Positions 22,439 through 31,775 of a stretch of 32,000 bases of DNA are shown one piece after another (the first letter of the stretch is position 1; each line of letters starts with the position of its first letter). The position numbers and the translations under genes were made by a program. This stretch comes from SAR324 cluster bacterium. GTDB taxonomy: Bacteria > SAR324 > NAC60-12. The notes under the pieces are model-generated. The model was not told the origin of the DNA. It was given only the letters and a program-made list of their open reading frames with translations, and ran no database searches. The DNA is taken from positions 796 to 32,795 of the forward strand of contig JADFZZ010000032.1 in assembly GCA_015232315.1 (NCBI GenBank), given 5' to 3'.

Positions 22439-22459
22439 AAGGCGGGTCACTCCCGCCTT
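22439..22459 (+). terminator. Rho-independent terminator after the pseudopilin gene
   Basis: AAGGCGGG-tcact-CCCGCCTT followed by TCTTTT. It overlaps the stop codon of the convergent minus-strand gene. Confidence 0.7.
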
Positions 22460-25341
22460 TCTTTTAGCTGACGATTCAGCTCTTCAAAGTGATTTCCCAT
22501 CCAACTCAACAGTTTCTTCTCATGCGGTGGAAAGCGTGTGTCAGACATGATGAATGTCTGGAAAATTTGAAGATACATGGCTTTTTCTCCGGCTTTCAGC
22601 ATTTCGACCTCCATTGCGCTCAGAAATACAGGATTGTATTTGGGCGGTGATGAATTTTGCAGGATGTTCCTGATTAAATCTTTCAGGTGATCCAACTGGT
22701 CCGTATACAGAAAATCCAGAAACAGAAATTCATCCTGAAACTTTTTTGGGGGAATATCCTTTCGGACTAGCTCACGATACAATGTGACAGCTTCCAGTTT
22801 ATCCCACATTTGTGCCATATTTCTGGGGTGCGTGATTTTTTTGAATTGATGATCAATCTCATTCCAGTTGGAATTTTTGCGGGCAATTCGCAGGGAATCT
22901 GTCAGCCATTCCAATTTTTCTGAAGGAATTGGCGGAGCATTTTTAAAATAATCTGTTTGAGCTCTGGAAAAATTTTCTGGTTCCAGAATTTCCTGATAAA
23001 ATGAAATAGCATTTATAAATGACCAGAACAAATCCACTTCCTGACTCAGAAACAACGCTTTTTCCGCACTGTTATCAACCAGAGGGAAAAAATATGAATT
23101 GGGATTCACATCTTCCAGAATAGGGCGTAGACTCTGGGTTGAAACAATAAAATTCTGAGGGCCGAACAAACGGGTATCCCCCTTGAATTTCAAAAATTCC
23201 TGAGCAATCTCTGGTTCTCGTTCAAAACGATCAATGGCATCCAGATTGAAATCAGTGTTGCCTGCAACAATCACATAATTTGCTTCACCAGCCAGATATA
23301 TTTTTGCGTAGGGAAAACGATTATCCAGAGCCTTGATAATGGTCAGCATGAGTTCTGTGTTGAAGGAATAACCATGGACCCATTGGACCAGTAAGCCTTC
23401 TGGTTTTAGAAATCGTTGGATGTGCTCGTAGAATTCTTCGGTGAACAGGCTCGAAACACCACTGACCCAAGGATTTGATGGTTCTGAAATGATAAGGTCA
23501 TATTGTCTGTTGGCCTGATAGAAATAGGTTTTGGCATCATCAAAAATAGGACGGATTTTGGGACTGTCATACACATTTCGATTATAAGGATAGAAATTTT
23601 TTGCCAATTCATACATCTGTTCTTCAATTTCGATCAAATCCAGATGTTTTAACAAGGGGTCGGATAGCAGATAGTGTGCAGACATACCACTGCCCAACCC
23701 GATCATTGCGGCGTCATAAGGCTGATTCATCGCAGCCATCGGAACAAACGCGGCAGCGGCCTGAGTATATTCATCTTCAGATATGGTGCCTTTCAATCCG
23801 ATACTCGCATCAACCTTGCCATTTGTTGCGATCATTGACCTGAATGGATTGAACGTGAATGAGATGGTTGCTGTTTTTCCATCCTTGACGAGTATTTGAT
23901 GAAAATCTCCGGCATTCAGCTTGCCACGAAAAACACCTATTGTGGTAAGATTCGGGTCAAGTTTGATATGCAATACAGGAATAAAGACCAGCACAGAAAC
24001 GCAGAGTGTCGCAATGAACTTCCATCGGGAAAGCTTATAGGCACCCAGCAGCACAAGTCCCAGACCGATATCAATCAAAGCTCCTGAGGCAATGGTGTAT
24101 TTGATCTGAAAATTCGGCAATAGCAATAACCCTCCCAGAGAGGCGCCAAGTATGGCTCCTATCGTATTCCAGCCATATACAAATCCAGTGTATTTTTCAT
24201 TGCGTGTAAAATTGATCAGATAATAAGTGATCAATGGCAGTGTCATTCCCGCAAAGAAACTGGTGGGTGCCATCATCAATAGGCAGATCAGATATTTGAA
24301 TATGGAATAGACTGGATAGGCGAGTTCTGTTTTTCTGAATACAGAATGTGAGTCGCTGATCGCGTAAAAAAACGGCTCGTAAAAATAGATGCTGCTCAAC
24401 GCAAACGCCCCCATGAGAATCTGGATGAAAGCCAACGTATGCGCGATGTTTCGTGAAGAGTCAATCAGCTTGCGGGCATAACCGCCTCCCAGGGCCAACC
24501 CCAGGATGAACGCGGAAATCATGATATCAAACGAATGGGTTGAAGATCCCAGCAACAACCCCAGAAGCCTGATCCAGCCAACTTCGTAAATGAAGGATGA
24601 AAACCCTGTCAGACCGCTGATCAACAACCATAGTCCAATGGTGCGCTGATCCGGAAGTTCATGTGAAATTTCCTTGTGAGATTCCGCACCGGAAAAAGAT
24701 TCTGTTATTTTGGGGCCAATGATTTTATCAGCTTTTTTGGCGATGAAATAAAACATCAATGCAATCAGTACATTGGAAGAACCAGCAATGGCGAGAGTTC
24801 CTATGGTTCCCATTTCCGGAATGAGCAGATAGGAAGTCGCCAGAATTCCAATGGCGGCACCCAGAGAATTGGTGAAATATAACACAGGCAGTGAAGAACG
24901 TCCTTCATCTCTGCTGACACGAATGACACCCACTGTGATGAATGGAAAAGTCATTCCAAGCAGGATCGCGGTCGGGAGCGTCATCAGCATGGAGATCAGC
25001 ACCTTGGTCAGATTGGCAAACCAGAAAGACGAAAAATATACATTGGCGGCTTCATAAAACCATTGGGTACAGACTAGATAAATTCCGTGGAAGACAAAAC
25101 CTGAAACGCCCACCAGCAACTCAATGGCAGCATAGACATAAAATGGATTCCGGATATTCCGACAGAGTCGTCCTGCCAGAAACGACCCGATGCCGAGTCC
25201 ACCCATAAAAATGGAAAGTGTCAGGATCTGACCATAAAACGAATGTCCGAGAAATAATTTAAGATACCGGGACCACAGTGATTCATAAATAAGACCAACA
25301 AATCCTGAAACAACGAACAGACCATAAATCAGGCGAACCAT
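22447..25341 (-). CDS. Fused polytopic membrane domain + spermidine-synthase-like (aminopropyl/methyltransferase fold) protein with a long C-terminal extension
   Basis: The N-terminal ~450 aa have many hydrophobic helices. The central region MIGLGSGMSAHYLL...LDLIEIE...DLIISEPSNPWVSGVSSLFTEEFY...LKPEGLLVQW is a spermidine synthase family signature. The track start at 25347 is a TTG; ATG 25341 is preferred. Confidence 0.85.
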   Translation of the reverse strand: MVRLIYGLFVVSGFVGLIYESLWSRYLKLFLGHSFYGQILTLSIFMGGLGIGSFLAGRLCRNIRNPFYVYAAIELLVGVSGFVFHGIYLVCTQWFYEAANVYFSSFWFANLTKVLISMLMTLPTAILLGMTFPFITVGVIRVSRDEGRSSLPVLYFTNSLGAAIGILATSYLLIPEMGTIGTLAIAGSSNVLIALMFYFIAKKADKIIGPKITESFSGAESHKEISHELPDQRTIGLWLLISGLTGFSSFIYEVGWIRLLGLLLGSSTHSFDIMISAFILGLALGGGYARKLIDSSRNIAHTLAFIQILMGAFALSSIYFYEPFFYAISDSHSVFRKTELAYPVYSIFKYLICLLMMAPTSFFAGMTLPLITYYLINFTRNEKYTGFVYGWNTIGAILGASLGGLLLLPNFQIKYTIASGALIDIGLGLVLLGAYKLSRWKFIATLCVSVLVFIPVLHIKLDPNLTTIGVFRGKLNAGDFHQILVKDGKTATISFTFNPFRSMIATNGKVDASIGLKGTISEDEYTQAAAAFVPMAAMNQPYDAAMIGLGSGMSAHYLLSDPLLKHLDLIEIEEQMYELAKNFYPYNRNVYDSPKIRPIFDDAKTYFYQANRQYDLIISEPSNPWVSGVSSLFTEEFYEHIQRFLKPEGLLVQWVHGYSFNTELMLTIIKALDNRFPYAKIYLAGEANYVIVAGNTDFNLDAIDRFEREPEIAQEFLKFKGDTRLFGPQNFIVSTQSLRPILEDVNPNSYFFPLVDNSAEKALFLSQEVDLFWSFINAISFYQEILEPENFSRAQTDYFKNAPPIPSEKLEWLTDSLRIARKNSNWNEIDHQFKKITHPRNMAQMWDKLEAVTLYRELVRKDIPPKKFQDEFLFLDFLYTDQLDHLKDLIRNILQNSSPPKYNPVFLSAMEVEMLKAGEKAMYLQIFQTFIMSDTRFPPHEKKLLSWMGNHFEELNRQLKERRE

Positions 25342-25595
25342 AGACAATTCTCAAGAGAAGAGGATATTAAAAATAAAAATGCATAGCAGATGTTATTCAT
25401 GACGGTCAAGTGCGATTCTTTTCAAACAGAATATTGCTATCCGTCGCAGAATGTATTAGTTGTTCCCTGCTGGTAATCTGGACTTTCCCTATGGGATTCT
25501 GAGCTATTTTCCCGGAGGGGTAAATGAATCATCCTTAGCGTGAAAAATTAAAATCCATTCGTGTAACGTGTTCATGTTTTATTAATCTTTATTCA

Positions 25596-27647
25596 ATGTC
25601 ACTGATGCCTGTTCACTCCGTACAACAACAGGGAATCCTCGCCAGGGTGATTGCCATTTTATGGATATTTTTTCTCACCTGGACCGTCTATTTTTCTACG
25701 CTGTTTATCCCGTTTTTTTTCGATGATCATCATATTATTGACAATGCGAGCCTTCATTCCCTGGCGATTCAGTGGCAGGAACTCCTGCATAACTGGTATA
25801 AATTCCAGAATAGCCGAATATTTCCAGACCTGACCTTTGCACTGAACTACTATGTTCATGGATTGGATGTTCCGGGATACCATGCAGTCAATATTCTGAT
25901 TCACGCTATCAATGCCTTGATTCTGATGAGGATGTTCTCATTCCTTGTCAGTATCCATACTTCCGCTGAAGAGCAGGTATCCTCACGTTCATCCATCACA
26001 TTCATTCAATATACTGTAATCTCTTTTTTCATCATTCATCCATTACTGACAGGATGTGTCAACTACACTGTTCAGCGTGCTGAACTCATGGCCATGACGT
26101 TTTATGCGCTGGGATTTTTATGCTATCTGCACTTGCGGCATCAAACGGGAACAAGGCGTCCTGTCTGGGCATTCTTGATATTGATCTGTTGGTATTTGGC
26201 TCTGAAAAGCAAGATTACGACGGTGACATTCCCAGGCATGCTGTTGGGATACGAAGTCATATTGGGCGCCAGCACGCCAGAATTTATGAAGAAATTGATG
26301 CATGCGGGTATTGCGGTATCCGGGTTGGCCTTATGTTTCATTCTGCTCCAATATGAATTTCACCTGTTCATTCCTCAGGCAACCTCTGTAGGCTTCAATG
26401 CCGGTGAACTCTGGGGGCCATGGGAGCAATTTCAGGCGCAATCCCGTGCGCTGTTTTATTACTGGCGCAATCTGTTTTTGCCATATCCAGGCTGGTTGAG
26501 TGTTGATCATGATTTCAGAATTTCGAGTCAGTTTATCGATCCTGTAGCTTTGTTGGCCTTACTGGGACATCTTTTGATTGCGGCTGGAGCGCTTTTGCTG
26601 GCTCGGCAAAAAAGAATTTATGCCGCATTAGGAATTTTTTGGTTCTATGTTGTGCAATCACCCTATATGATCACACCCATTGCCGATATTCTGGTGGATT
26701 ACAGAGTTTACAGTGTCAGTCCGGGATTTTTTCTGATCATGCTGGAAATGCTGAAATTTCTGAACCATCGCGTTTCCCCCCATGGGTTTCGGAGTTTGTT
26801 GCTTGGCCTTGGATGTCTGACATTGCTAACAGCATGGAATAGAAATCTTGATTATGACAGCAATATTACTTTGTGGGAAGATGCCTTGAATAAGGCTCCT
26901 GAAAATGCGAGAGCCTATAACAATCTCGGTGATGTATATTTCAATGAGTCTCAATGGGGAAAAGCTGAAAATGCCTTCCAAAACGCCATCAGAATTAAAC
27001 CAGATTATTTTGATGCCCGTAGAAATCTGGCAAAAGTCCATGTCTTTACTGAACGGTACTCACAAGGGTTGGAAATATACCATTCGATCCTGAAAGAAAC
27101 CCCACAGGATCCGTTATCATATTTTGGAATTGGTTATATTCACAAAAAAAGGAATGAGAATACGGAGGCAGAATCTGCGATGCGGAAGGCCATAGAAATC
27201 ATGGAGGCTCCTGACTATGAGGGGCCCTTATATTACAAATCAGACTTTGCTGCTAGTGTTTACAACAGTTTAGGTGATTTACTCATGGGCGAAGGACGGA
27301 TTGATGAAGCGCTCATTTATCTGAAAAAATCACTGCATATCGATCCTGATAACGCATTCACTCTCTATAATCTTGGAACCGCCTATATGAAAATTGAAGT
27401 ATGGGATCAGGCAATGTCCCATCTGATCAGATCAATTGAACGCAACCCAAACCATGCGGATGCCTGGAATAACCTGGGTATCGTTTTTATCCAGGTTGGC
27501 CAGAGGGAAAACGCAAAAAAAGCTTTCAGGAAAGGCTTGAGCATTGCTCCTCGAAATTCCCAACTGTTACAGAATTATAGCCGATCAATGAATTCCCCGC
27601 AATCTGGGCCACACCATAACGATCAAGCTGGATTCTTTGGAAAATAA
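25596..27647 (+). CDS. GT-C-fold membrane glycosyltransferase-like protein with C-terminal TPR repeats (TMTC/PMT-like)
   Basis: FFFDDHHIIDN acidic motif in the first loop after TM1 (cf. the DD/DE motif of PMT/TMTC GT-C enzymes), about 10 further TM segments, then at least 5 TPRs (ARAYNNLGDVYFNESQWGKAENAFQNAIRIKPDY..., AFTLYNLGTAYMKIEVWDQAMSHLIRSIERNPNHADAWNNLGIVF...). Confidence 0.78.
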   Translation: MSLMPVHSVQQQGILARVIAILWIFFLTWTVYFSTLFIPFFFDDHHIIDNASLHSLAIQWQELLHNWYKFQNSRIFPDLTFALNYYVHGLDVPGYHAVNILIHAINALILMRMFSFLVSIHTSAEEQVSSRSSITFIQYTVISFFIIHPLLTGCVNYTVQRAELMAMTFYALGFLCYLHLRHQTGTRRPVWAFLILICWYLALKSKITTVTFPGMLLGYEVILGASTPEFMKKLMHAGIAVSGLALCFILLQYEFHLFIPQATSVGFNAGELWGPWEQFQAQSRALFYYWRNLFLPYPGWLSVDHDFRISSQFIDPVALLALLGHLLIAAGALLLARQKRIYAALGIFWFYVVQSPYMITPIADILVDYRVYSVSPGFFLIMLEMLKFLNHRVSPHGFRSLLLGLGCLTLLTAWNRNLDYDSNITLWEDALNKAPENARAYNNLGDVYFNESQWGKAENAFQNAIRIKPDYFDARRNLAKVHVFTERYSQGLEIYHSILKETPQDPLSYFGIGYIHKKRNENTEAESAMRKAIEIMEAPDYEGPLYYKSDFAASVYNSLGDLLMGEGRIDEALIYLKKSLHIDPDNAFTLYNLGTAYMKIEVWDQAMSHLIRSIERNPNHADAWNNLGIVFIQVGQRENAKKAFRKGLSIAPRNSQLLQNYSRSMNSPQSGPHHNDQAGFFGK

Positions 27648-27829: not shown

Positions 27830-28333
27830 ATGGTCATGATTAAATTAAGAGATTCCATTTTTGTAATTCGCCCGGCTACACCGCAGGATGTCCCGGTGAT
27901 TTTACAACTGATCAGGGACTTGGCTGACTATGAAAAATTAAGTCAGGAAGTTTGCGCCACGGAATCCCTGTTGCACCAGGCCCTGTTTGAACAATATTCC
28001 GCAGAAGTTTTACTGGGATTTATGGATCATCAGCCTGTCGGAATGGCTGTTTTTTTTCATAGCTGTTCCACATTTCTGGGGCGTCACGGTATTTATCTGG
28101 AAGATCTTTATGTGCGACCGGAATTCAGAGGTAAAGGGTTGGGAACTTCTTTGCTGAAAGAAATTGCCCGCTTGGCTGTTGAACGGAAATGCGGCCGAAT
28201 TGAATGGGCTGTGCTCAATTGGAACACTTCCGCGATTGAGTTTTATGAAAATCTTGGCGCTTCTCCACTGAGTGGCTGGACCACGTATCGTCTTACTGGA
28301 AATGCCCTGGAAAAATTCGCGCTGAGTGATTAA
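27830..28333 (+). CDS. GNAT-family N-acetyltransferase (diamine/SSAT-like)
   Basis: IRPATPQDVPVILQLIRDLADYEKL...LEDLYVRPEFRGKGLGTSLLKEIARLA...IEWAVLNWNTSAIEFYENLGA contains the acetyl-CoA motif R-x-x-G-x-G. An alternative ATG is at 27836. Confidence 0.88.
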   Translation: MVMIKLRDSIFVIRPATPQDVPVILQLIRDLADYEKLSQEVCATESLLHQALFEQYSAEVLLGFMDHQPVGMAVFFHSCSTFLGRHGIYLEDLYVRPEFRGKGLGTSLLKEIARLAVERKCGRIEWAVLNWNTSAIEFYENLGASPLSGWTTYRLTGNALEKFALSD

Positions 28334-28349
28334 CCATCATAGGAATAAT

Positions 28350-29051
28350 ATGGGATCGAAAAAAACAATTGACAAACTTGCTAAAATTTTCGGAGATGCC
28401 GCCGTCGAAGTGCTCTCCAACTCCAGTGGCGCGGATATTTATTTTGCACCCACTGTTCAGAAAGTGGATCTCATTTATCTCAAACCGGATATTGGCACGT
28501 TTGTACAGTTTCGTGGCGATTATTCAGGCCTGGTGATTGTGAATTTCACCAAGGAAGCCGCTATGGAGTATTACCGCATGTCCATGCTGAACATGGGCTT
28601 TCCAGCAGAGGAACTGGCCATTGACCATACTGCTGATGATGTGGTGGACAGTATCGGTGAAAGTGTGAATCAATTGATCGGAAAAGCCCGGCAAATGATT
28701 CAGGAAGAATATGGCCTGTCCTCCTACAACAACCAGCCCAAAGCGGTTTGTCTGATGGAATCCATCCTGCTTTCAATCAACACCATGATTCATCACAAAC
28801 CCTCAGATTGCCGCAGATTGTCCTTTCGTATTTCAGGTCGGCATACGTTTCATATTGAAATGTTCATTGAACAGACAGAGTTCATTATACTTGACCCTGA
28901 ACGTCTGAAAGCCGGCCAACAAAAAAGCAGTAACCGTGACCTTGATATTGATGCCATGATGGATGCTGAAAAAGCTGATAAAAAAGAAAAAGAAACGGTC
29001 GCGGCAACCAACAACCTTGATATTGAAGCATTATTGAATGCCAATCGTTAG
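28350..29051 (+). CDS. CheX/CheC-family CheY-P phosphatase-like protein with a charged C-terminal tail
   Basis: Exact phosphatase consensus D-x3-E-x2-N-x22-P: DSIGESVN-(22 aa)-P at aa 108-138 of the track ORF. N-terminus is CheX-like (LAKIFGDAAVEVLSNSSG). Start at ATG 28350 (AGGA upstream). Confidence 0.72.
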   Translation: MGSKKTIDKLAKIFGDAAVEVLSNSSGADIYFAPTVQKVDLIYLKPDIGTFVQFRGDYSGLVIVNFTKEAAMEYYRMSMLNMGFPAEELAIDHTADDVVDSIGESVNQLIGKARQMIQEEYGLSSYNNQPKAVCLMESILLSINTMIHHKPSDCRRLSFRISGRHTFHIEMFIEQTEFIILDPERLKAGQQKSSNRDLDIDAMMDAEKADKKEKETVAATNNLDIEALLNANR

Positions 29052-29065
29052 TCCTGAGCTGCTTA

Positions 29066-30760
29066 ATGACTATTGAAAAATCCGCTTACAAAATATTGCT
29101 GATCAGCCAGAATAATGAAGATCGTACCCGCCTGCAAAATCATCTGGATGCCATCAAGGTTGCCACAATCCATCTGGATCAGGAAACGCTCTTTGAACAG
29201 GCCCGGGAATTGATTCTGGAGGCCAAATATGATGCCTATCTGATTGACTATGACATTCTTCCTGAATCAGCCTTGGCACTGGTGCAGAGCGTTTATGAAG
29301 ACTGCGCAAAACCACTGATCATCATCGACGAACAGGAACAGTATGAGCGGGACATTGCGGCAATGGAAGCCGGAGCAAGTTATTACCTGCCCAAAAAACA
29401 TATTGTTCCCTCCATTCTTGAACGGTTACTCCGCTACAACATCTACTATAGCTCCACCCGTGATGAGTTGCAGAATTTTCTGGAAATCCAGAATACAATC
29501 TCTGGAAATCTACTGGAAACCGCCAGTCAACTCAAAGTCGCAAAAGATGAACTGCAACAGAAAAATACTGAAATGCTGGCCAGTCATCGCAAACTGGAAG
29601 ACCTGAATCAGACCAACCAGCAGTTTTTAAATATCGCGCTCAAACTTTATAAAAACCATTTCATTCCGTTGCGCGAAAATATTGAAAACATGCTGAACTC
29701 CGTAGTCCTTGACACGAAGGAAGGCATTCGTCAGGCGGCCCGGGAAATCCACCAGATGGATGAACTCCTGCGTCCTGTAACTCTTTTGGGTACGGAACAG
29801 GCGGCCATTCACAAAAAACGGGTGCTGTTGGCTGAACTGGACCGTAAACAACAGATTGTCGCAAAAATGGCGCTGGGAGGAACAGGCATTGACTTTGATA
29901 TTGTAGCTGATTTCACTGAGGGTGAGGAACGCCTCAAAACTTCACGTTATGATATACTTTGTGTCGATCTGGGATTTATTGAACTGGCACGCATGGCCCA
30001 TGAACAATATCCGGAAACACAGATTGTGTTCATGACCTCGGCCAATGCTCCGGCTTATCTGCCGATCATCATCAAGTTGCCGTTTCTTTCCAATATTGTT
30101 TCAAGAGATAAGGAGGACCGCACCTTTACCCTGAAAAATATTCTGGTTACCATCAGCAAACTGCTCACCGATGATTTATTCGGACTGGAAAAGTATATGA
30201 GTTGGGGGGTTGAAGTGCATCAAATGGTCATTCGATCCAGTCGGGAACGCGCGGAAATGGTGGAAAACATGGAACGGATTCTGGATCAGTTCGGTGTTCA
30301 TCGTTCCGTGATCCGCAAAGCAGGAATGGTGGCGGAAGAATTGTTGATGAACGCAATTTATGACGCGCCTCACAGTGCCGATGGGAAACCTCTGTATAAC
30401 CATCTTTCACGGATAAACCCGGTGGAATTGCCACTCAATGAGCAGGGAATTTTCCGGTTTGCCTGCGACGGGATGTTGCTGGCGCTTTCTGTTCAGGATC
30501 CCTTTGGTGCTCTGGGGCGCCACACAATTCTGAATTATTTGCAAAAATCCTATCTGAATCGGAATCTGGCGGAGGATAGTCAGGAAAAAATGAATAAGGG
30601 CGGAGCCGGATTGGGACTGTTCCAGATCATGTCCGCCTCCGACCTGTTTGTGATCAATGTCAAACCGGGCGTCAGGACAGAGGTGATTGTAGTGTTCAAT
30701 ATTGATCCTGATAAACCTAAAAACACACCATCCACATCATTTCAATATTTTTGTCATTAA
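29066..30760 (+). CDS. Dual receiver (REC-REC) protein fused to an RsbW/SpoIIAB-type GHKL serine-kinase/anti-sigma domain
   Basis: REC1: KILLISQNNED...YDAYLIDYDI...PLIIID...GASYYLPKK. A coiled coil follows. REC2: RVLLAELDRK...YDILCVDLG...QIVFMTSANA. The C-terminus has N-box VAEELLMNAIYDAP and G-box GGAGLGLFQI. Confidence 0.72.
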   Translation: MTIEKSAYKILLISQNNEDRTRLQNHLDAIKVATIHLDQETLFEQARELILEAKYDAYLIDYDILPESALALVQSVYEDCAKPLIIIDEQEQYERDIAAMEAGASYYLPKKHIVPSILERLLRYNIYYSSTRDELQNFLEIQNTISGNLLETASQLKVAKDELQQKNTEMLASHRKLEDLNQTNQQFLNIALKLYKNHFIPLRENIENMLNSVVLDTKEGIRQAAREIHQMDELLRPVTLLGTEQAAIHKKRVLLAELDRKQQIVAKMALGGTGIDFDIVADFTEGEERLKTSRYDILCVDLGFIELARMAHEQYPETQIVFMTSANAPAYLPIIIKLPFLSNIVSRDKEDRTFTLKNILVTISKLLTDDLFGLEKYMSWGVEVHQMVIRSSRERAEMVENMERILDQFGVHRSVIRKAGMVAEELLMNAIYDAPHSADGKPLYNHLSRINPVELPLNEQGIFRFACDGMLLALSVQDPFGALGRHTILNYLQKSYLNRNLAEDSQEKMNKGGAGLGLFQIMSASDLFVINVKPGVRTEVIVVFNIDPDKPKNTPSTSFQYFCH

Positions 30761-30786
30761 TTTTTTTAAGGGGGGAGAAACTATAA

Positions 30787-31395
30787 ATGAGTATTACAAT
30801 TTTTAACACACCAATTCTGAGTCCATTATTGCGTTATATCTCTCTCATCAGCATGAAATTGCTTGGCTGGAAGCATGAAGGTGAATTTCCGCCGGTTTCC
30901 AAGGCTGTGATGATTGCCGCACCGCATACAACCAATTGGGACCTGATTATCATGTTGGCGCTGTGTTTCATCTTTCGGGTCAAGATTGTCTGGCTGGGAA
31001 AAGACAAAATATTTCGCTTTCCTTTTGGCTGGTTCATGCGCTGGATGGGCGGCGTTTCAATCGACCGGAGCAAATCCAACAACGTGGTTTCTCAATCGAT
31101 CGAACAATTCAACCGTAGTGAATCACTGGTAATGACGGTTCCGCCTGAAGGCACCCGCAAGAAAGTAAAAGTCTGGAAAACCGGTTTTTATTATATCGCT
31201 CTTGGCGCCAAGGTACCGATTGTGCTGGGGTTTATCGACTTTGAACGCAAAACGGGAGGAATTCTCGGCACCTTCACGCCTACAGGAGATATTGAAAAAG
31301 ACATGGTTGCCATTCAGGGGTATTATGTGAATATAAAGGGGAAGTTTGCTGATAAAACCAGTTTACCCGAATTTGAAAATAATCCGCCTCAGTAA
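30787..31395 (+). CDS. Lysophospholipid (1-acyl-glycerol-3-phosphate) acyltransferase family protein
   Basis: H-x4-D motif AAPHTTNWD. Also GGVSIDR and VPPEGTR motifs typical of PlsC-family acyltransferases. Confidence 0.85.
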   Translation: MSITIFNTPILSPLLRYISLISMKLLGWKHEGEFPPVSKAVMIAAPHTTNWDLIIMLALCFIFRVKIVWLGKDKIFRFPFGWFMRWMGGVSIDRSKSNNVVSQSIEQFNRSESLVMTVPPEGTRKKVKVWKTGFYYIALGAKVPIVLGFIDFERKTGGILGTFTPTGDIEKDMVAIQGYYVNIKGKFADKTSLPEFENNPPQ

Positions 31396-31400
31396 GTTTT

Positions 31401-31775
31401 ATGAAAGAACCACGTATGCAAGTTGAACATCAAGCAATGGAACAAATTGGGATCCTTCATGTTTCCGGTCACATTTCCCTGAGAGACATTGAATATTTCC
31501 GGGATTTTGCGCACAAAATCATTGATGATCCCCTTGTGACTCATTTTATCATGAATCTGGAAAAAGTGAGTTTTATAGATTCTTCAGGGATTGGAATTTT
31601 CATCCACTGTTGGCGGGCAATGTCGCAGAAACAGGGCTATTTTGTTCTGTGTGGTCTGAATGAAAAAAACAGACAACTGATTCAGATGACCACCCTGCCC
31701 CAGTTTATTTCAATTCATAACAACCTGGAAGAGGCAATGACCCGCCTTCAGGAAAAGGCCAAACCGCATTCATGA
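31401..31775 (+). CDS. STAS-domain anti-sigma-factor antagonist (SpoIIAA/RsbV-like)
   Basis: HFIMNLEKVSFIDSSGIGIFIHCWR carries the phosphorylatable Ser in the DSSG motif. LCGLNEKNRQLIQMTTL is also present. Confidence 0.85.
   Translation: MKEPRMQVEHQAMEQIGILHVSGHISLRDIEYFRDFAHKIIDDPLVTHFIMNLEKVSFIDSSGIGIFIHCWRAMSQKQGYFVLCGLNEKNRQLIQMTTLPQFISIHNNLEEAMTRLQEKAKPHS

Follow-up and report, generated by a model that had tools for sequence, protein, structure and literature searches.

The DNA analysed here, called the window throughout, is a stretch of 32,000 nucleotides from the genome of a SAR324 cluster bacterium (NCBI GenBank assembly GCA_015232315.1, contig JADFZZ010000032.1, positions 796 to 32,795 of the forward strand), and all positions given without a contig label count from its first nucleotide. 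The window contains five co-directional genes, coding for a GNAT N-acetyltransferase, a CheX-like protein of the DUF3334 family, a signalling protein of 564 residues, a small acyltransferase of the PlsC family and a STAS protein resembling SpoIIAA and RsbV. An earlier note, drawn up from the DNA letters and their open reading frames, had reported this gene order, and the five genes are indeed present on the plus strand. The most useful result of our analysis is found at the level of a protein family: the 564-residue protein ends in an unannotated output module, made of a coiled coil, a pseudo-receiver and an RsbW-like Bergerat domain, which is a variant of the Rec-Bergerat or HsbR type and is found fused to many different sensors.

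The five-gene locus

The genes of the cluster, with the evidence that identifies each of them (E-values unless stated otherwise), are the following:

27830-28333, plus strand: GNAT N-acetyltransferase of 167 residues, the first gene of the cluster (PF00583, 1e-18)
28326-29051, plus strand: DUF3334/CheX-like protein of 241 residues (PF11813, 3e-48; CheX model PF13690, 35.1 bits with a cut-off of 27)
29066-30760, plus strand: signalling protein of 564 residues with a degenerate receiver, a coiled coil, a pseudo-receiver and an RsbW-like Bergerat domain (AlphaFold2 (AF2) model, mean predicted local distance difference test (pLDDT) 85)
30787-31395, plus strand: small PlsC-family acyltransferase of 202 residues with an H47-x4-D52 motif (PF01553, 2e-12)
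31401-31775, plus strand: SpoIIAA/RsbV-like STAS protein of 124 residues with the motif D60-S61-S62-G63 (PF01740, 6e-17; TIGR00377, 69.8 bits)

Pfam and NCBIfam models confirm the identity of four of the five genes, the exception being the 564-residue protein. The DUF3334 gene, read from its GTG start, overlaps the stop of the GNAT gene by 8 nucleotides (a 16-nucleotide gap results if the first in-frame ATG is used), and the gaps that follow measure 14 nucleotides to the gene of the 564-residue protein, 26 to the acyltransferase and 5 to the STAS gene. With a common direction and gaps of at most 26 nucleotides, the five genes look co-transcribed, as judged from their layout. The cluster ends at the STAS gene, because the next gene, an oxidoreductase, is convergent. 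Promoter and terminator scans of the cluster gave no signal above shuffled expectation and no internal terminators above chance; the 182-nucleotide gap 5' of the GNAT gene is the likely promoter region.

Architecture of the 564-residue protein

In its AF2 model, the 564-residue protein is organised in four successive regions:

29087-29425, plus strand: REC1, residues ~8-120, a receiver fold with a degenerate active site (Response_reg, 28.5 bits with a cut-off of 30.2)
29426-29812, plus strand: long signalling coiled coil, helices at residues ~110-212 and 215-249 (DSSP on the AF2 model)
29813-30175, plus strand: REC2, a pseudo-receiver, residues ~250-370, with E257, D301, T324 and R347 (receiver fold in the AF2 model)
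30176-30757, plus strand: RsbW/SpoIIAB-type Bergerat (GHKL) domain, residues 371-564 (domain-only AF2 model and Foldseek)

DSSP assignment on the full-length model (mean pLDDT 85) delimits the first receiver fold at residues 9-109, very long helices at 110-212 and 215-249, the second receiver fold at 252-370 and an alpha/beta domain at 384-563. Conventional searches say little about this last domain. Pfam finds no match on the last 200 residues, including none to HATPase_c_2 (PF13581) at E<0.1, NCBIfam returns only weak response-regulator matches for the whole protein, and a direct comparison of the C-terminal domain with the PDB, by sequence and by profile, gave nothing meaningful. Taking its predicted structure as the guide, this is an RsbW/SpoIIAB-type Bergerat domain, visible through structure only. 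Modelled on its own, the domain reaches a pLDDT of 87.6 and a predicted template modelling score (pTM) of 0.84, and a Foldseek search of this model against the PDB places SpoIIAB (1til, 1tid, 1l0o, 1th8) and RsbW (6m36, 6m37) at all of the top 12 ranks, with target template modelling (TM) scores of 0.71-0.87. The top 21 further include LvrC, SiaB and UsfX, an anti-sigma factor of mycobacteria, whereas the ATP-binding domains of histidine kinases (CheA P4) rank far lower (E>0.02, TM ~0.4).

The residues expected of an ATP-binding Bergerat fold can be located in this model. The N box carries E424/E425 and N429, a G1-like box reads D478-P-F-G481, and the G2 box contains G513, G515 and G517; all of these residues are invariant in alignments of 38 and of 27 relatives. 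HATPase_c_2 is the sole GHKL model of Pfam that registers in the relatives, weakly and in four of 38 (best E 0.0016), and HATPase_c does so in none of the 38 at E 0.01 or better. The earlier note had read a GHKL domain of RsbW type in this position and had let its model depend on that reading, which is borne out both by the fold search and by the invariant N- and G-box residues. We consider the domain and family identity of the 564-residue protein to be very likely.

The two receiver folds have departed from the canonical type in different ways. The fold of REC1 runs from the first strand (residues 9-13) to the fifth (106-109), and alignment with canonical REC-type relatives, which have a D-D pair and a Thr or Ser at the Thr site, gives S14-Q15 at the acidic pair, D61 at the acceptor, D88 at the Thr/Ser site and K110 at the Lys site. 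Since REC1 is without the acidic metal-binding pair, it probably does not accept phosphoryl groups from a histidine kinase in the normal way, and by these residues it would be classed as a degenerate receiver. REC2, on which Pfam finds no match, keeps its first acid (E257, a position that is conserved as E or D in the family) and the Thr site (T324, with T in 34 of 38 relatives). Its acceptor position, D301 here, is occupied by D in 12, N in 17 and S in 5 of the 38, and by D, E, N, S, G, A and others over 80 loci. The Lys site is R347, and 37 of the 38 aligned relatives also have Arg there. Positions 259 and 301 show no co-variation, which would have marked a phosphorylatable subfamily. As read from these alignments, REC2 is a pseudo-receiver scaffold across the family, and phosphorylation of an Asp cannot be its conserved mechanism. 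The earlier note had held that both receivers keep the context of the acceptor Asp as well as the conserved Lys; this stands for D61, D301 and K110 and fails at Arg347, and the acidic pocket, which the note's own model called for, is missing from REC1, where S14-Q15 is joined by D88 at the Thr site.

A family of C-terminal output modules

The 564-residue protein has 351 homologs, in which only the last 70-77% is conserved. The conserved part starts at about residue 140, within the coiled coil, and is kept from there on in all relatives; no invariant His was found in the helical region or in the rest of the module in the family alignment. The module is always C-terminal in its host proteins, and what precedes it is exchangeable: canonical REC, cyclic nucleotide-monophosphate (cNMP)-binding, CBS, PAS, HAMP, dCache and 7TMR-DISM domains in relatives elsewhere, and 7TMR-DISM with GAF, 7TMR-DISM with HisKA, HATPase_c and REC, PAS, REC, and a Hanks kinase with AAA_16 and GAF in the same genome. 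Pfam annotates none of the ~420 residues of the module. In a library search, with clusters at 50% identity, the family comprises 271 clusters at E<1e-30 and 1,219 at E<1e-10. The ~420-residue module defines a sizeable, so far unannotated family of C-terminal output modules fused to many sensors. No paper describing it was found in our literature search.

Species-representative genomes contain 380 stretches of the module, mostly in Bdellovibrionota, including cultured Bdellovibrio strains, and also in records named SAR324 or 'Deltaproteobacteria bacterium TL4'. Bdellovibrionota and genomes of apparent SAR324 lineage are where the family is concentrated. The majority of relatives, cNMP-type members among them, are encoded by genes that stand alone; one REC-type relative sits 4 bp after a histidine kinase gene, and another relative adjoins a REC-PP2C-cNMP gene. 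These gene contexts fit the role of an output domain.

The genome of the window itself encodes eight close paralogs of the 564-residue protein and about ten module genes in total. Two proteins of ~1,400 residues each (G000:C55:61153-65343 and G000:C14:11858-16042) combine 7TMR-DISM, HisKA, HATPase_c and a canonical REC followed by the module, that is, a full phosphorelay ending in an RsbW-like domain within a single polypeptide. A protein of 1,903 residues (G000:C7:1555-7263, minus strand) joins a Hanks-type Ser/Thr kinase, an AAA_16/STAND NTPase, GAF and the module in one chain. Two more distant paralogs of the module core are a protein of 448 residues with a canonical REC (G000:C11:84482-85825, 34% identity, E 1.7e-38) and one of 304 residues without a Pfam match (G000:C44:75417-76328, 29% identity, E 1e-13), both of which may connect the module to the REC-HATPase_c_2 proteins of LvrC type considered below.

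The genes that accompany the module

The last gene of the cluster codes for the antagonist-like STAS protein. Its score with the anti-sigma-antagonist model TIGR00377 exceeds the cut-off of 53 bits, its best PDB relatives are SpoIIAA structures (E 1e-9), and D60-S61-S62-G63 aligns on the phosphorylation site D57-S58 of SpoIIAA, the codon of S61 being located at 31581-31583. The STAS protein therefore keeps a phosphorylatable Ser, making signalling from the kinase-like domain to STAS plausible, and by its sequence it is a credible substrate of the Bergerat domain. Elsewhere in the genome, a paralog of the 564-residue protein on contig C22 had seemed to lie near a STAS gene, and was set aside because unrelated genes intervene (greA and a gene of the isocitrate/isopropylmalate dehydrogenase family). 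The same contig also encodes a protein of 222 residues in which STAS is fused to PilZ, a cyclic di-GMP-binding domain (L007:9816-10484; G000:C22, about 265815-266483).

The DUF3334 protein carries, besides its match to the CheX model, the active-site motif of the CheC/CheX/FliY phosphatases:

28647-28739, plus strand: CheC/CheX/FliY-type active-site motif D-x3-E-x2-N-x22-P, residues 108-138 (exact regular-expression match, one copy)

In 30 of 30 DUF3334 proteins of relatives, the Glu, Asn and Pro of this motif are invariant, and 24 of the 30 also have the Asp, a pattern suggesting that the family probably keeps aspartyl-phosphatase chemistry. DUF3334 is found in 26 of the 88 genomes of the phylum, in very varied neighbourhoods: an MscS-like channel, FecR, a radical SAM enzyme, RmuC, STAS and PP2C. 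Of the 30 loci examined in the phylum, only that of the window has a module gene next to DUF3334. Two genomes of one genus have a STAS gene adjacent to DUF3334, and in a second genus DUF3334 sits immediately upstream of a gene for a REC-PP2C protein; these three genomes from two genera weakly suggest a function of the family in the service of partner-switching regulators. No chemotaxis genes were seen beside DUF3334, whether here in the window or across the sampled flanks of 30 loci of relatives, and no paper on the family was found in the literature search. An unannotated protein of 532 residues beside the second DUF3334 copy of this genome was considered as a possible relative of the module and proved to be unrelated.

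The two remaining genes encode acyl- and acetyltransferases. The GNAT protein has only weak NCBIfam matches, all below cut-off (HaaN and PaiA/SSAT-like), and no second GNAT copy was found in the genome. The acyltransferase scores 49.9 bits with TIGR00530, below the cut-off of that model, and its H47-x4-D52 was read directly from the sequence. Counting its own genome, it has orthologs in 20 of the 88 genomes of the phylum, at 21 loci, and none of those in the 19 other genomes has a STAS or module gene as a neighbour. The proposal of the earlier note, that the GNAT and PlsC-like genes hint at a metabolic or membrane-lipid output, thus finds no support in conservation, and the two genes are best read as lineage-specific operon companions rather than as a conserved output. 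A more specific reading, as an ornithine-lipid pathway of OlsA/OlsB type, was dropped: the OlsA match has an E-value of 0.006, far below cut-off, and the GNAT protein belongs to the Acetyltransf_1 type. Another family of the phylum includes two genomes with a GNAT gene downstream of the acyltransferase ortholog; the two genes overlap in one of them (L139:1483-2555) and lie within 1 kb of each other in the second (L138). The acyltransferase and GNAT genes may be a pair in their own right, unconnected with the signalling genes. Upstream of the cluster, the region 22447-27647 encodes a membrane protein of 966 residues with a spermidine-synthase domain (minus strand) and a membrane protein of 683 residues with many TPR repeats (plus strand).

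A proposed signalling route and its alternatives

The explanation that best accommodates the locus as a whole, and that we regard as evenly poised between holding and failing, is that the 564-residue protein is a member of the module family whose sensor acts through the coiled coil and the pseudo-receiver on the Bergerat domain, with Ser61 of the STAS protein as the output. In the route that we infer, the input would be received by the sensor domain N-terminal of the coiled coil, here the degenerate receiver; the signal would pass along the coiled coil to the pseudo-receiver, which would gate the Bergerat domain; and the most likely output would be ATP-dependent binding of the co-transcribed STAS protein and phosphorylation of its Ser61. 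The DUF3334 protein may dephosphorylate another receiver that feeds the system, or may bind the degenerate receiver. That the 564-residue protein acts on the adjacent STAS protein, taken by itself, is a claim that we put slightly short of an even chance. The earlier note had also proposed such an action of the kinase on STAS, and this part of its proposal remains plausible, given the RsbW/SpoIIAB fold and the co-operonic STAS protein with its aligned Ser; the gating of the reaction by Asp phosphorylation of the receivers, which it had added, is doubtful.

Several observations weigh against the explanation that we favour. In the Bergerat domain, the G1 box is atypical, with D-P-F-G instead of D-x-G-x-G, and sequence profiles alone do not discriminate between GHKL domains of RsbW and histidine-kinase type: profile-profile comparison (hhalign) of the domain gives E 1e-4 with the RsbW set and 7e-6 with the histidine-kinase set. 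As for the partner, the 80 module loci in other genomes have no STAS, DUF3334, acyltransferase or GNAT gene as a neighbour, and one has a PP2C gene; the other seven close paralogs in the same genome do not share an operon with a STAS gene either. The pairing with the STAS protein rests on a single operon, and the five-gene cluster is not conserved among the relatives checked. With 22 STAS and about ten module genes in 5.25 Mb, the chance that one module gene would lie within 1 kb of a STAS gene is, by a rough estimate, 5-10%, a figure somewhat lowered by the tight co-directional packing seen here. Finally, there is no PP2C gene in the cluster or on the contig of the window (C25), even though 56 are present elsewhere in the genome.

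A first alternative is a chance or recent juxtaposition, in which the 564-residue protein would act on an unlinked partner and the other four genes would belong to other pathways. The absence of any conserved pairing over 80 module, 30 DUF3334 and 21 acyltransferase loci, the stand-alone position of most module relatives and the density of STAS and PP2C genes in the genome would all be expected under it. Nevertheless, five co-directional genes with gaps of at most 26 nucleotides and no internal terminators above chance look co-transcribed, three of the five genes share one signalling logic, and DUF3334 adjoins STAS or PP2C in three other genomes from two genera. We consider juxtaposition somewhat unlikely.

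A second alternative concerns the output. The Bergerat domain may sequester a sigma factor, as has been proposed for LvrC (PMC13269768), in which case the STAS protein would be the antagonist and its phosphorylation only the reset. In the fold search, the domain resembles anti-sigma factors most closely (RsbW, UsfX, and SpoIIAB with sigma F), LvrC has been interpreted likewise, and the STAS protein passes the anti-sigma-antagonist model TIGR00377, all in agreement with this view. The genome-wide repertoire points elsewhere. The 5.25 Mb genome has 142 matches to HATPase_c, 56 to SpoIIE/PP2C, 22 to STAS and 27 to HATPase_c_2, at least 13 RsbW-type genes and about ten module genes, but only six genes of the sigma-70 family. 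Partner-switching parts far outnumber sigma factors, therefore most such units cannot each control a sigma factor of their own. This repertoire is consistent with outputs other than sigma factors, and it says nothing on the output of the unit formed by the 564-residue and STAS proteins. As the earlier note had stated for the window, neither a sigma factor nor a PP2C phosphatase is encoded nearby, and indeed the whole contig has no match to PP2C (PF07228) or to Sigma70_r2. Moreover, a partner-switching output that does not involve a sigma factor has been documented in HsbA-HsbD (PMC6482189). On this evidence, sequestration of a sigma factor seems unlikely.

The model of the earlier note differs from the route that we favour in its input: an unlinked histidine kinase would phosphorylate D61 and/or D301, the DUF3334 protein would reset them, and the phosphorylation state would gate the phosphorylation of the STAS Ser. 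It draws on the acceptor Asp present in both domains, together with K110 in REC1 and E257 and T324 in REC2, on the exact and family-wide CheC/CheX catalytic motif of a DUF3334 protein encoded 14 nucleotides upstream, on the relative in which DUF3334 lies directly upstream of a REC-PP2C gene, and on the canonical REC-type members of the module family that adjoin histidine kinases. However, REC1 has S14-Q15 instead of the acidic metal ligands and D88 in place of the Thr, and scores below the Pfam cut-off; the acceptor of REC2 is unconstrained in the family and Arg replaces its Lys; and neither the other 29 DUF3334 loci nor the 80 module loci show the two genes side by side. The CheX-type protein that the note had placed upstream is borne out by the CheX model and the motif, while its supposed task, removing phosphoryl groups from the receivers of the 564-residue protein, is doubtful with receivers so degenerate, and we find the model as a whole distinctly improbable.

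An autokinase resembling histidine kinases, in which the coiled coil would provide a DHp-like phospho-acceptor helix and the pseudo-receiver would be the internal acceptor, would agree with the hhalign comparison to the histidine-kinase ATP-binding domains of the genome (E 7e-6, N box to G2) and with the REC-histidine kinase LvrB among the top Foldseek matches of the full-length model, but it is largely refuted, and hardly credible, given that the module has no invariant His in its helices or elsewhere, that histidine-kinase ATP-binding domains rank far below SpoIIAB and RsbW in the domain-only fold search, that the acceptor position of the pseudo-receiver is not conserved and that the HATPase_c model matches none of 38 relatives at E 0.01 or better.

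Returning to the route from sensor to STAS through the coiled coil, a broader version of it can be formulated for the whole family. The module may be an undescribed general output domain with a role like that of GGDEF or HisKA, feeding sensors into partner switching by Ser phosphorylation; the pseudo-receiver would then be a clamp driven by the coiled coil independently of phosphorylation, and at this locus the CheX-like protein would read the degenerate receiver by binding to it, not by dephosphorylation. Taken in full, this proposal is possible and on balance doubtful. It would, if true, give partner switching direct input from one-component sensors as well as hybrid histidine kinases, and even from a Hanks kinase-STAND protein.

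As a rule, two-component signalling is regarded as a circuit distinct from partner switching, and few fusions of the two are known (HsbR, CrsR and now LvrC). The locus described here points to an entire family of proteins whose RsbW-like domain is a portable output module behind many sensors. Domain libraries miss the module, and proteins that contain it are consequently annotated by their sensor domain alone, for instance as 'cyclic nucleotide-binding protein'. Recognising it would improve annotation, would help to explain the wiring of a genome with 56 PP2C, 22 STAS and six sigma factors, and would provide a testable route from cNMP to a serine kinase in Bdellovibrio. The five-gene operon itself matters less, because it is not conserved.

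Comparison with known systems

Proteins that combine a receiver with an RsbW-like kinase were already known, namely HsbR (PMC6482189) and LvrC (PMC13269768), and these are compared here with the module, together with simpler systems. The best structural matches of the C-terminal domain are the Bacillus pairs SpoIIAB-SpoIIAA and RsbW-RsbV (1th8, 1til, 6m36). SpoIIAB and RsbW are stand-alone proteins of ~145-160 residues encoded with their sigma factor, whereas the domain studied here lies at the C-terminal end of multi-domain sensors, contains ~25 inserted residues following the N box, and is not accompanied by a sigma gene. The DUF3334 protein, for its part, shares with the CheY-P phosphatases CheX, CheC and FliY the CheX model, which it passes, and the active-site consensus D/S-x3-E-x2-N-x22-P; it differs from them in constituting a separate Pfam family (PF11813) and in not being encoded with chemotaxis genes.

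HsbR of Pseudomonas aeruginosa (REC-PP2C-kinase/anti-sigma), with its STAS partner HsbA, is the established precedent for the arrangement (PMC6482189). HsbR-HsbA and CrsR-CrsA of Shewanella have in common with the present locus that one protein combines a receiver with an RsbW-type kinase/anti-sigma domain, that the gene of its STAS substrate (putative substrate in our case) is adjacent, and that the output need not be a dedicated sigma factor. HsbR and CrsR have a PP2C domain between receiver and kinase, and their receiver is phosphorylatable. In contrast, the 564-residue protein has no PP2C domain, nor is one encoded in the operon; a coiled coil and a pseudo-receiver take its place, and the N-terminal receiver is degenerate.

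The closest parallel for the core of the module is LvrC of Leptospira interrogans, a Rec-Bergerat response regulator proposed to be an anti-sigma factor under the control of Rec (PMC13269768). In both, a receiver fold is followed directly by an RsbW/SpoIIAB-like Bergerat domain, and LvrC was retrieved in both fold searches. The receiver of LvrC is canonical and is phosphorylated on D53 by LvrB, whereas the module has a pseudo-receiver with Arg for Lys and a variable acceptor, preceded by a coiled coil of ~140 residues and an exchangeable sensor domain; direct PDB sequence and profile searches with the 564-residue protein do not match LvrC.

The genome of the window provides a link between the two. 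It encodes about 11 proteins of ~300 residues with a canonical REC and HATPase_c_2, which match LvrC (PDB 9qih) over their full length with E 8e-25. The gene of one of them directly follows a STAS gene, and a classic trio of REC-PP2C, STAS and RsbW genes is found on contig C11. In an hhalign comparison, the module core (residues 245-564) aligns with the 11 REC-HATPase_c_2 proteins over 296 colinear columns, with a probability of 96.3 and E 1.5e-9. The module core is thus best seen as a remote, diverged relative of the Rec-Bergerat units, one whose receiver has become independent of phosphorylation and can do without an acceptor Asp.

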